A stretch of 21,557 nucleotides of DNA, taken from NCBI GenBank assembly GCA_013265495.1, contig MU058217.1, positions 434,001-455,557 of the forward strand, written 5' to 3'. The notes beneath the pieces were generated by a model that saw only the letters and a list, made by a program, of their open reading frames with translations, did not search any database and was not told the DNA's origin. A program made the translations under genes and the position numbers. Below are positions 14,651 to 16,072 of this stretch, one piece after another (positions within the stretch are counted from its first letter, which is position 1; each line of letters starts with the position of its first letter). This stretch comes from Vicugna vicugna. Its lineage: Eukaryota.

Positions 14651-16072
14651 TCAGTGTCCAAAGATGAAGAGGGACTCGCTGGCTGCAGCCCCTGCCTTAC
14701 CACTCGGGGTGTACTTTCCTTGGCAGGCGAGGCTGTTGGCCAGGGCCCGCTTGACGTATTCTTCCTGAGCAGGCTTCAGGTTCTCCTTCTTTCCCCCCCA
14801 GGTCTTCAGGGCAGAGGCCTGCAGGGCTCGGCCATAGGAGAAGGTCAGAGCCCACGGCTTCAGCAGGGGGCACTTGTTGATGGCGTTGAGGTTGATGGAT
14901 GCCTCCTCCTCACTCTGGCCTCCAGATAAGAAGGTGATCCCAGGGACAGCGGGCGGCACTGTGCGGCGCAGTACCGTGACAGTTGCCATGGCAATCTCCT
15001 CATGAGAATATTTGTGGGTGCAGGCGTGGCCTAGGGTTACCATATTGGGCTTCAGCAAGGTGCCTTCCAGGTAGATGTGGTGGTCACTCAGAGCCTTGTA
15101 GACAGTAGCCAGCACCTTCTCAGTTACATACTGACAGCATTTCAAATCATGGTCCCCATCAGGGAGGATCTCGGGCTCCACGATGGGCACAATGCCATTC
15201 TGTTGGCAGATGCTGGCATAACGGGCCAGGACATTGGCGTTTTCCATGATGGCGAGGGAGGAGGGGGTGTGCTCCCCGATCTTCAGCACACAGCGCCACT
15301 TGGCAAAGTCAGCTCCGTCCTTCTTGTACTGGGCACAGCGCTCAGACAGCCTATCCAGCCCTTGGGTGGTCAACTCGCCATTTGTTCCTGCCAGGGGTAC
15401 CACACCCTTGTCTACCTTGATGCCCACAACACCACCCTTGGCTTTGATAACTTGGGGGAAGGGACGCCCATCATCTGCCTTCTGGTAGAGTGTCTCATGG
15501 AAGAGGATGACGCCACCAATGCAGGGGTTCACGCGGTCGTCAGCTGTCAGCAGCAGCTGGCGGTAGAAGCACCGGTTCTCCTCGGTGTTCTCAGTGCCGA
15601 TGGACTGCAGTCGCTTGGCAATGCACCCGGTGGGCTCATCTGCAGCCAGGATGCCCTTGCCCAGAGCCACGATGCGGTGAGCAATGTCAGAGAGCTCCTT
15701 CTTCTGCTCCGGGGTCAGTGCTGGGTATTGGTAGGGCATGGTGCCTGTCGGTTCCTTTCCTAACTCTGTTGCTGGGTGTTGCCCAGCTGAGGGTGGGGCT
15801 GTATACTGGCATCTGGGGTAAAGGAATAGGCCAAAGCCATGGACAGGCAGGTCATGTGGAAGCTGGACCCTTCTGGCTTGCGCTCTGCCATGGGGTCACC
15901 TTGCCTGGCACAAGAGAGGGGTGGGTTGGCGGGGTGCAGCGGTGGAGGACCGCGGGTTGGCGAGTGGACTGAGGGAGCGGACGCGGCAGTCGTCACCAGG
16001 ACTCTGGTTCTGCGGCGCGTTCCAAGCGGAACGCAGCCTATTCAGCTCCCGAGAGGGGGGCGCAGGGGGCTC
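14651..16072 (-). pseudogene. ALDOA: Processed retrocopy of fructose-bisphosphate aldolase A, long (V2-like) transcript; open 362-codon ORF at 14651-15739; probable processed pseudogene, retrogene status unresolved
   Basis: Intronless [27 protein letters not shown]...LLKPNM...SESLFI close to aldolase A. Upstream lie the spliced extension exon ([11 protein letters not shown]...) and a GC-rich ALDOA-like 5' UTR exon. Non-conservative substitutions, altered C-terminus (FIFGH*), no poly-A tail seen. Confidence 0.93.

Follow-up and report, generated by a model that had tools for sequence, protein, structure and literature searches.

Mouse Aldoart1 was reportedly presented by Vemuganti et al. in 2007 as a retrogene derived from Aldoa_v2, a splice form of the aldolase A gene (ALDOA) with an N-terminal extension, and retrocopies are said to have been treated as records of splice forms by Shemesh et al. 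in 2006. According to a survey of the Aldoa_v2 exon (bioRxiv 10.1101/2021.03.01.432277), this exon originated in the placental ancestor, is confined to the testis in human, cow and mouse, and has been eroded in every cetacean examined; camelids do not appear in its main text but may be listed in its supplements. For the extension, a role in anchoring the enzyme to the fibrous sheath has been proposed, and fertility has been reported for Aldoart2 knockouts (PMC10435352, PMC13437342). Two ALDOA retrocopies have been counted in human and 18 in mouse, with Aldoart1, derived from Aldoa_v2, and Aldoart2 both confined to rodents; in the same report, the use of retrocopies as evidence of splice variants of the parent appears as an established idea, and the inheritance of a retrocopy is stated to require germline expression (PMC2881024). 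Such copies are generally made through LINE-1 proteins (PMC12016303).

Here we describe an ALDOA retrocopy found in a stretch of 21,557 nucleotides of the Vicugna vicugna genome (contig MU058217.1, positions 434,001 to 455,557), referred to below as the window. The copy, with the flank-derived end of its open frame, spans positions 14651-16072 and, like all of its parts, lies on the minus strand. We read it, with a probability of about 0.8, as a processed pseudogene, i.e. a dead fossil of a known splice form and not a new sperm gene. No paper on this camelid copy was found in the literature searched, which took in few subscription journals.

The copy begins with a non-coding ALDOA 5' exon of 168 nt (16072-15905; GC 0.70, 16 CpG, no ATG), the 5' edge of which was placed where GC-rich sequence gives way to A-rich sequence and not by alignment with the parent. 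Its CpG observed/expected ratio is 0.86, as against 0.42 in the coding part. Presumably, this is the ubiquitous CpG-island first exon of ALDOA, in which case the 5' end looks like a mark of the housekeeping start region and not of a sperm promoter. It is followed by a cassette exon of the long, Aldoa_v2-type isoform (15904-15755; 150 nt in the copy), with an ATG at 15891, extra ATGs at 15855 and 15840 in the same frame and one at 15812 out of frame, and then by the common ALDOA coding exons (15754 to about 14662), which are devoid of introns. From the second ATG, an intron-less aldolase A frame of 362 codons stays open (15739-14651) and is 93-95% identical to four mammalian ALDOA orthologues; 359 of these codons are colinear with orthologues, and the final three residues are derived from the flank. 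Upstream, an element at 16073-16226, also on the minus strand and composed of a tRNA-Ala-like head (16149-16221) and an A-rich tail, abuts the 5' end of the copy with its tail, and we take it to be a camelid tRNA-derived SINE. A scan with a SINE motif returned seven loci, four of which carried ordinary tRNA genes and none of which was used, and an Rfam match to mir-6130 was dismissed as a chance one (26.7 bits against a threshold of 117). Elsewhere in the window, a head-to-tail duplication of 339 nt (19779-20117 and 20120-20458, 98.2% identity) is either a recent tandem duplication or an assembly artefact, and the minus-strand stretches at about 19150-19780 and 20870-21270 resemble, to our eye, the 3' end of an old L1 and a likewise old LTR of the MaLR type.

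The first-pass annotation had named the long ALDOA isoform as the template, and both the peptide encoded upstream of the enzyme and the two spliced junctions of the cassette exon bear this out. The 40 residues that it had quoted from the minus-strand ATG at 15891 are encoded exactly, followed by QQS and a TAG at codon 44. The resulting 43-residue peptide matched 10 of 10 candidates among longer proteins (best E 2e-18, 88% identity) and 10 of 10 among short ones, with identities of 70-88% in both sets, and the matches included annotated ALDOA isoform X1 of goat, armadillo and Mustela. Its first 42 codons were 86-88% identical to the long isoforms of ruminants and porpoise. To judge from these alignments, the likeness to the ALDOA extension is not due to chance. 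The porpoise (Phocoena sinus) UniRef model (P0020) itself has an open extension of 52 residues despite the disabling mutations reported for all examined Cetacea, and may skip the lesion. A metagenome scan with the extension alignment gave 153 matching stretches, none of them confirmed, and an exact look-up of the 43-residue peptide returned no entry.

The upstream junction of the cassette exon was present as previously described, at 15905/15904, with an uncertainty of a few nucleotides, since the bases that precede it also resemble the end of an intron. Peptides of other mammals that are genomic read-throughs begin to agree with the window at about 15909-15914 and continue to do so only downward, and two gene models (P0019 and P0054) join other upstream exons at this very point. 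The downstream limit of the exon had been put at 15760, and this needed correction to a second junction at 15755/15754. All 14 short genomic peptides read past LGK into intron-derived VQEAGL or VPEAGL (alignment A2), whereas the window continues after LGK with EPTGTM into the common start codon, as in spliced isoforms, and a walrus model with a different first exon (P0029) joins at the same point. The short matches are thus genomic read-throughs of one exon, both intron flanks of which are, by this comparison, gone from the window. The parental ALDOA is presumably located away from this neighbourhood. Parent exons are fused without introns at two 5' junctions, as established by comparison with other mammals, and this is the ground for classing the sequence as a retrocopy; having neither a poly(A) nor a target-site duplication, it does not qualify as a proven classical LINE-1 insertion.

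The earlier statement that the extension is joined to the coding exons without introns holds for the DNA but not for the reading frame. The distance between the two ATGs is 152 nt, and the usual 52-residue extension takes 156 (among 17 long isoforms starting with MA, the number of extra residues was 52 in 14, 55 in two and 54 in one). By tblastn, the extension was found in frame -3, whereas an 11-residue stretch and all that follows it were found in frame -2, with the switch near 15770. The frameshift was therefore placed approximately at 15768-15772, in a CAG/CAA-rich stretch with 4 nt fewer than a 52-codon extension would have. Since these 4 nt are missing near 15770, the extension reads as a separate upstream ORF (15891-15760, 43 codons ending in a TAG stop), cut from the enzyme frame. 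An Aldoart1-type retrogene would have an unbroken frame running from the extension through the enzyme to the natural stop; here the frame ends at codon 44, and the C-terminal residues are lost as well. The copy would accordingly yield no sperm-type aldolase. The former view of the copy as a record of a germline transcript was sound as regards exon structure; it was overrated in that the extended frame is lost, that every inherited retrocopy stems from a germline or early-embryo transcript, and that the Aldoa_v2 precedent has been published.

Could the frameshift have been inherited, with camelids having eroded their Aldoa_v2 exon as cetaceans did, so that the copy records an already broken allele? 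The erosion reported for all examined Cetacea (bioRxiv 10.1101/2021.03.01.432277) provides a precedent, and no camelid-labelled long isoform occurred among the 20 peptide matches, nor any camelid ALDOA among the cluster members listed in three cluster look-ups. This absence carries little weight, since the listings gave just 15 of 116 members for the largest cluster and even the copy's own peptide has no entry. Moreover, conservation of the first 42 codons is at the ruminant level, which fits an exon that was working when copied, and in a copy with many other lesions one more is to be expected. We therefore find it very improbable that the frameshift predates the copy.

Sequencing runs were consulted through an index queried with 15740-16072 (26 sampled words, 24 rows returned). 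Fourteen DNA-type rows, with five organism labels and from eight studies, shared 0.85-0.92 of the words (the best row, which may be the source sample, 0.92, and the other 13 rows 0.85). The ceiling for genomic DNA of the parent is 0.80 of the words, and 22 of 26 words has a P of 0.005 at 1% divergence, in sums that treat overlapping words as independent; for these reasons the copy itself, at a divergence of about 1% or less, is the most likely content of the DNA rows. This suggests that the copy is common to close relatives, the rows being uninformative on Camelus. Four RNA rows from two studies, two of them labelled reproductive system metagenome and two with the coded organism label F, shared 0.65 of the words. 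As the 5' exon alone can reach at most 0.46, they probably contain words of the cassette exon (P at most 0.03). Such rows fit a long isoform in the reproductive tract, the source of which may be the parent, the copy or DNA, given that RNA runs can hold DNA; the same share also matches the long mRNA of the parent at about 1% divergence. One further reproductive-system RNA row, at 0.35, fits the short mRNA, and one row at 0.15 (X20) and four at 0.00 are evidence neither way.

These rows also bear on the possibility that an assembly error accounts for the frameshift or the 3' junction and that the real allele is more intact. A gap of about 75 Ns (approximately 17040-17200), with flanks rich in G/C and T runs that resemble low-quality ends of reads, lies about 1 kb upstream, and the indel falls within a short repeat-like stretch. 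On the other hand, the best DNA run and the 13 others hold their 0.92 and 0.85 of the words in a stretch that includes the indel, and the many substitutions show decay independently of it. We give very little credence to such an error.

The constraint on the enzyme part was assessed against 14 distinct orthologues, a set drawn from 93 proteins, of which 28 had full-length bodies and 65, being fragments, variants or products of other genes, were left out. The copy departs from the majority sequence at 18 of 359 residues, the 14 orthologues at 3-12. Relative to these orthologues, all non-camelid, 11 changes are private to the copy, and nine of them hit columns invariant in all 14, whereas in leave-one-out counts the orthologues had 0-2 such changes in 12 cases and six and seven in the remaining two. 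Seven of the 11 would require a C-to-T or G-to-A substitution, the usual pattern of decay. The private changes include S35P and S38C (mature numbering). Ser35 and Ser38 bind the phosphate of the substrate, and Tyr363, which is absent from the copy, is needed for full aldolase activity. In a docking study, the residues given as lining the substrate pocket include Ser35, Ser38 and Tyr363 (PMC13081170), and Ser38 is also named there by another report (PMC8518375). The catalytic residues Asp33, Lys107, Lys146, Arg148, Glu187 and Lys229 are unchanged. In a neutral simulation (six settings, 2000 runs each), the frame remained open in 7-34% of runs, with 11-13 replacement changes gained, and hence its openness alone is no sign of selection. 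About 11 replacements over approximately 800 estimated sites tentatively suggest an age of some millions of years. Along with the frameshift and the 3' truncation, the nine changes in invariant columns mark the copy as disabled and under relaxed constraint.

The copy lies upstream of GLP2R, on the same strand. The first coding exon of this gene (12848-12510, minus strand, with ATGs at 12848 and 12689) starts about 1.8-2 kb downstream of the copy, and further exons were recognized on the minus strand at about 5930-5840, 3900-3795 and 1657-1532. The 60 residues read from the ATG at 12689 were 100% identical to GLP2R of Vicugna pacos and 90-92% identical to that of three Camelus species, which identifies the window as South American camelid DNA. 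The in-frame upstream ATG (12848-12689) lengthens the N-terminus of camelid GLP2R by 53 residues in alpaca and three Camelus species, and the minus-strand segment 6906-6956 corresponds to an alternative first coding exon in one annotated alpaca GLP2R model (P0099, 17 of 17 residues). On the minus strand, a donor-like splice site is present at 14529-14523, roughly 135 nt beyond the copy's 3' end, in a stretch with GC 0.60 and a CpG observed/expected ratio of 0.55; it may belong to an upstream non-coding GLP2R exon into which the copy landed.

This setting invites a reading in which the copy is alive, either as a short-form retrogene like mouse Aldoart2 or as a copy that is transcribed and has regulatory effects: transcription would be driven by the CpG-rich 5' exon, the broken extension would act as an upstream ORF, and the product would be the 362-residue protein or a transcript running through into GLP2R. 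The open frame with its six catalytic residues, including the lysines, speaks for it and counts against a dead copy, as do the RNA rows at 0.65, in so far as an origin from the copy is as possible as one from the parent or from DNA. CpGs are retained in the 5' exon, which could thus be unmethylated and able to start transcripts, and between the copy and GLP2R there is no canonical poly(A) signal but a donor-like site at 14529. Yet a frame of this kind is not rare under neutrality, nine invariant columns are changed, Tyr363 and the UTR are lost, and the 0.65 share also fits the parent. Furthermore, the exact 362-residue product was absent from a collection of 15 billion proteins, and the first 130 residues of eight further camelid proteins of the GLP2R cluster matched the 5' part of the copy and the spacer only at chance-level 6-mers. 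We thus regard a living copy as quite unlikely and retain the dead processed pseudogene as the preferred reading.

At the 3' end of the copy, the last codon that still resembles ALDOA is the Ile codon at 14665-14663, with the junction at 14663-14661 (minus strand), some five codons short of the natural stop. The junction is not followed by a 3' UTR, and neither AATAAA nor ATTAAA occurs from 14661 to 12400. The first run of at least six A residues is at 14299, about 360 nt past the junction, and no target-site duplication was seen in a search reaching from 68 nt upstream to about 960 nt downstream of the copy; the best candidates were a 7-mer and a 10-mer with one mismatch, neither of them at the junctions. 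A longer repeat, D1 (14649-14668 and 16356-16375, 80% over 20 nt), was rejected as a target-site duplication because its upstream copy lies on the far side of the SINE, at a distance of about 285 nt from the 5' end. The 5' flank, examined for the endonuclease consensus, is A-rich but is at the same time the tail of the SINE. The poly(A) and the target-site duplication, which are the classical marks of a LINE-1 insertion, are lacking, which counts against this route.

The 3' end might have been missing since the insertion itself, through an endonuclease-independent, repair-type event or a template switch from SINE to mRNA, with no later deletion. Three of the four criteria given for non-classical L1 insertions, i.e. 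3' truncation, a missing poly(A) and a missing target-site duplication, are indeed found in the copy (PMC1920257), and the SINE tail directly abuts its 5' end. However, an A-rich 5' flank is what would be expected of an L1 endonuclease site and an upstream target-site copy, the 5' end is seemingly complete, unlike in 18 of 21 non-classical L1 fragments, which were also 5'-cut by at least 3 kb (PMC1920257), and millions of years leave room for a later deletion. Loss at the time of insertion is in our opinion unlikely, if well within reason, and we favor a processed pseudogene truncated afterwards.

Comparison with described systems places the copy as follows. Like Aldoart1, it stems from retroposition of the N-terminally extended ALDOA splice form; as Aldoart1 is rodent-only (PMC2881024), the camelid copy is a separate event, in agreement with the independent retroposition proposed in the first-pass annotation. 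Aldoart1 is expressed in spermatogenic cells and encodes the extended protein, whereas in the camelid copy the extension is out of frame, the C-terminal tail is missing and constraint is relaxed. It thus arose by an Aldoart1-like event but is no Aldoart1-type retrogene, because the extended frame fails. With Aldoa_v2, or ALDOA isoform X1, it shares the cassette peptide, at the level of identity given above for ruminants and porpoise, and the same two junctions, but it is a DNA copy at another locus and not a spliced gene. Frequent lineage-specific retroposition of ALDOA and copies that record splice forms are known from the processed pseudogenes of glycolytic enzymes (PMC2881024), to which the camelid copy adds a further lineage; it is unusual only in being truncated just before the stop codon and in its same-strand site about 2 kb upstream of a gene. 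Non-classical L1 insertions (PMC1920257) resemble it in 3' truncation and in lacking a poly(A) and a target-site duplication, and differ from it in that the camelid insert derives from a cellular mRNA, seems complete at its 5' end and has an A-rich 5' flank.

Taken together, the splicing pattern, the frameshift, the truncation, the excess of changes at invariant sites and the lineage can be read directly from the window and its comparisons. The course of events behind them would have been as follows. An ALDOA mRNA started from the CpG-island first exon and including the testis-type cassette exon would have undergone reverse transcription in an ancestor of South American camelids, most likely in the male germline and by LINE-1 proteins, and been inserted at an A-rich site beside the tRNA-derived SINE, about 2 kb upstream of GLP2R. 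It would since have evolved without constraint: a loss of 4 nt would have severed the enzyme frame from the fibrous-sheath-targeting extension, insertion would have been followed by loss of the 3' end with its last codons, UTR, poly(A) and downstream target-site copy, and conserved residues would have drifted. In this account, LINE-1 as the enzyme, testis as the source tissue, the 3' loss after insertion and the absence of function are what we infer.

If the copy is dead as we propose, its importance is limited. Retroposition of Aldoa_v2 is already known, and the addition is the camelid lineage: camelids would join the lineages with evidence of a germline long form of aldolase A, two junctions and the rough 5' end of this form would be known without RNA data, and a second, failed, retroposition of the form behind mouse Aldoart1 would be on record. 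The copy could also act as a presence/absence marker in camelid phylogeny. Two further possibilities, which even jointly we hold to be improbable, would carry greater weight. One is that the copied CpG exon, being unmethylated, acts as a promoter about 3 kb upstream of GLP2R, from which reproductive-tract transcripts run or splice into GLP2R or encode a tail-less aldolase; the other is that the camelid parent lost the sperm isoform independently of whales. The finding would gain in importance if the copied CpG exon alters the expression of GLP2R, or if the exon is broken in the camelid parent too, a parallel to the loss in whales.
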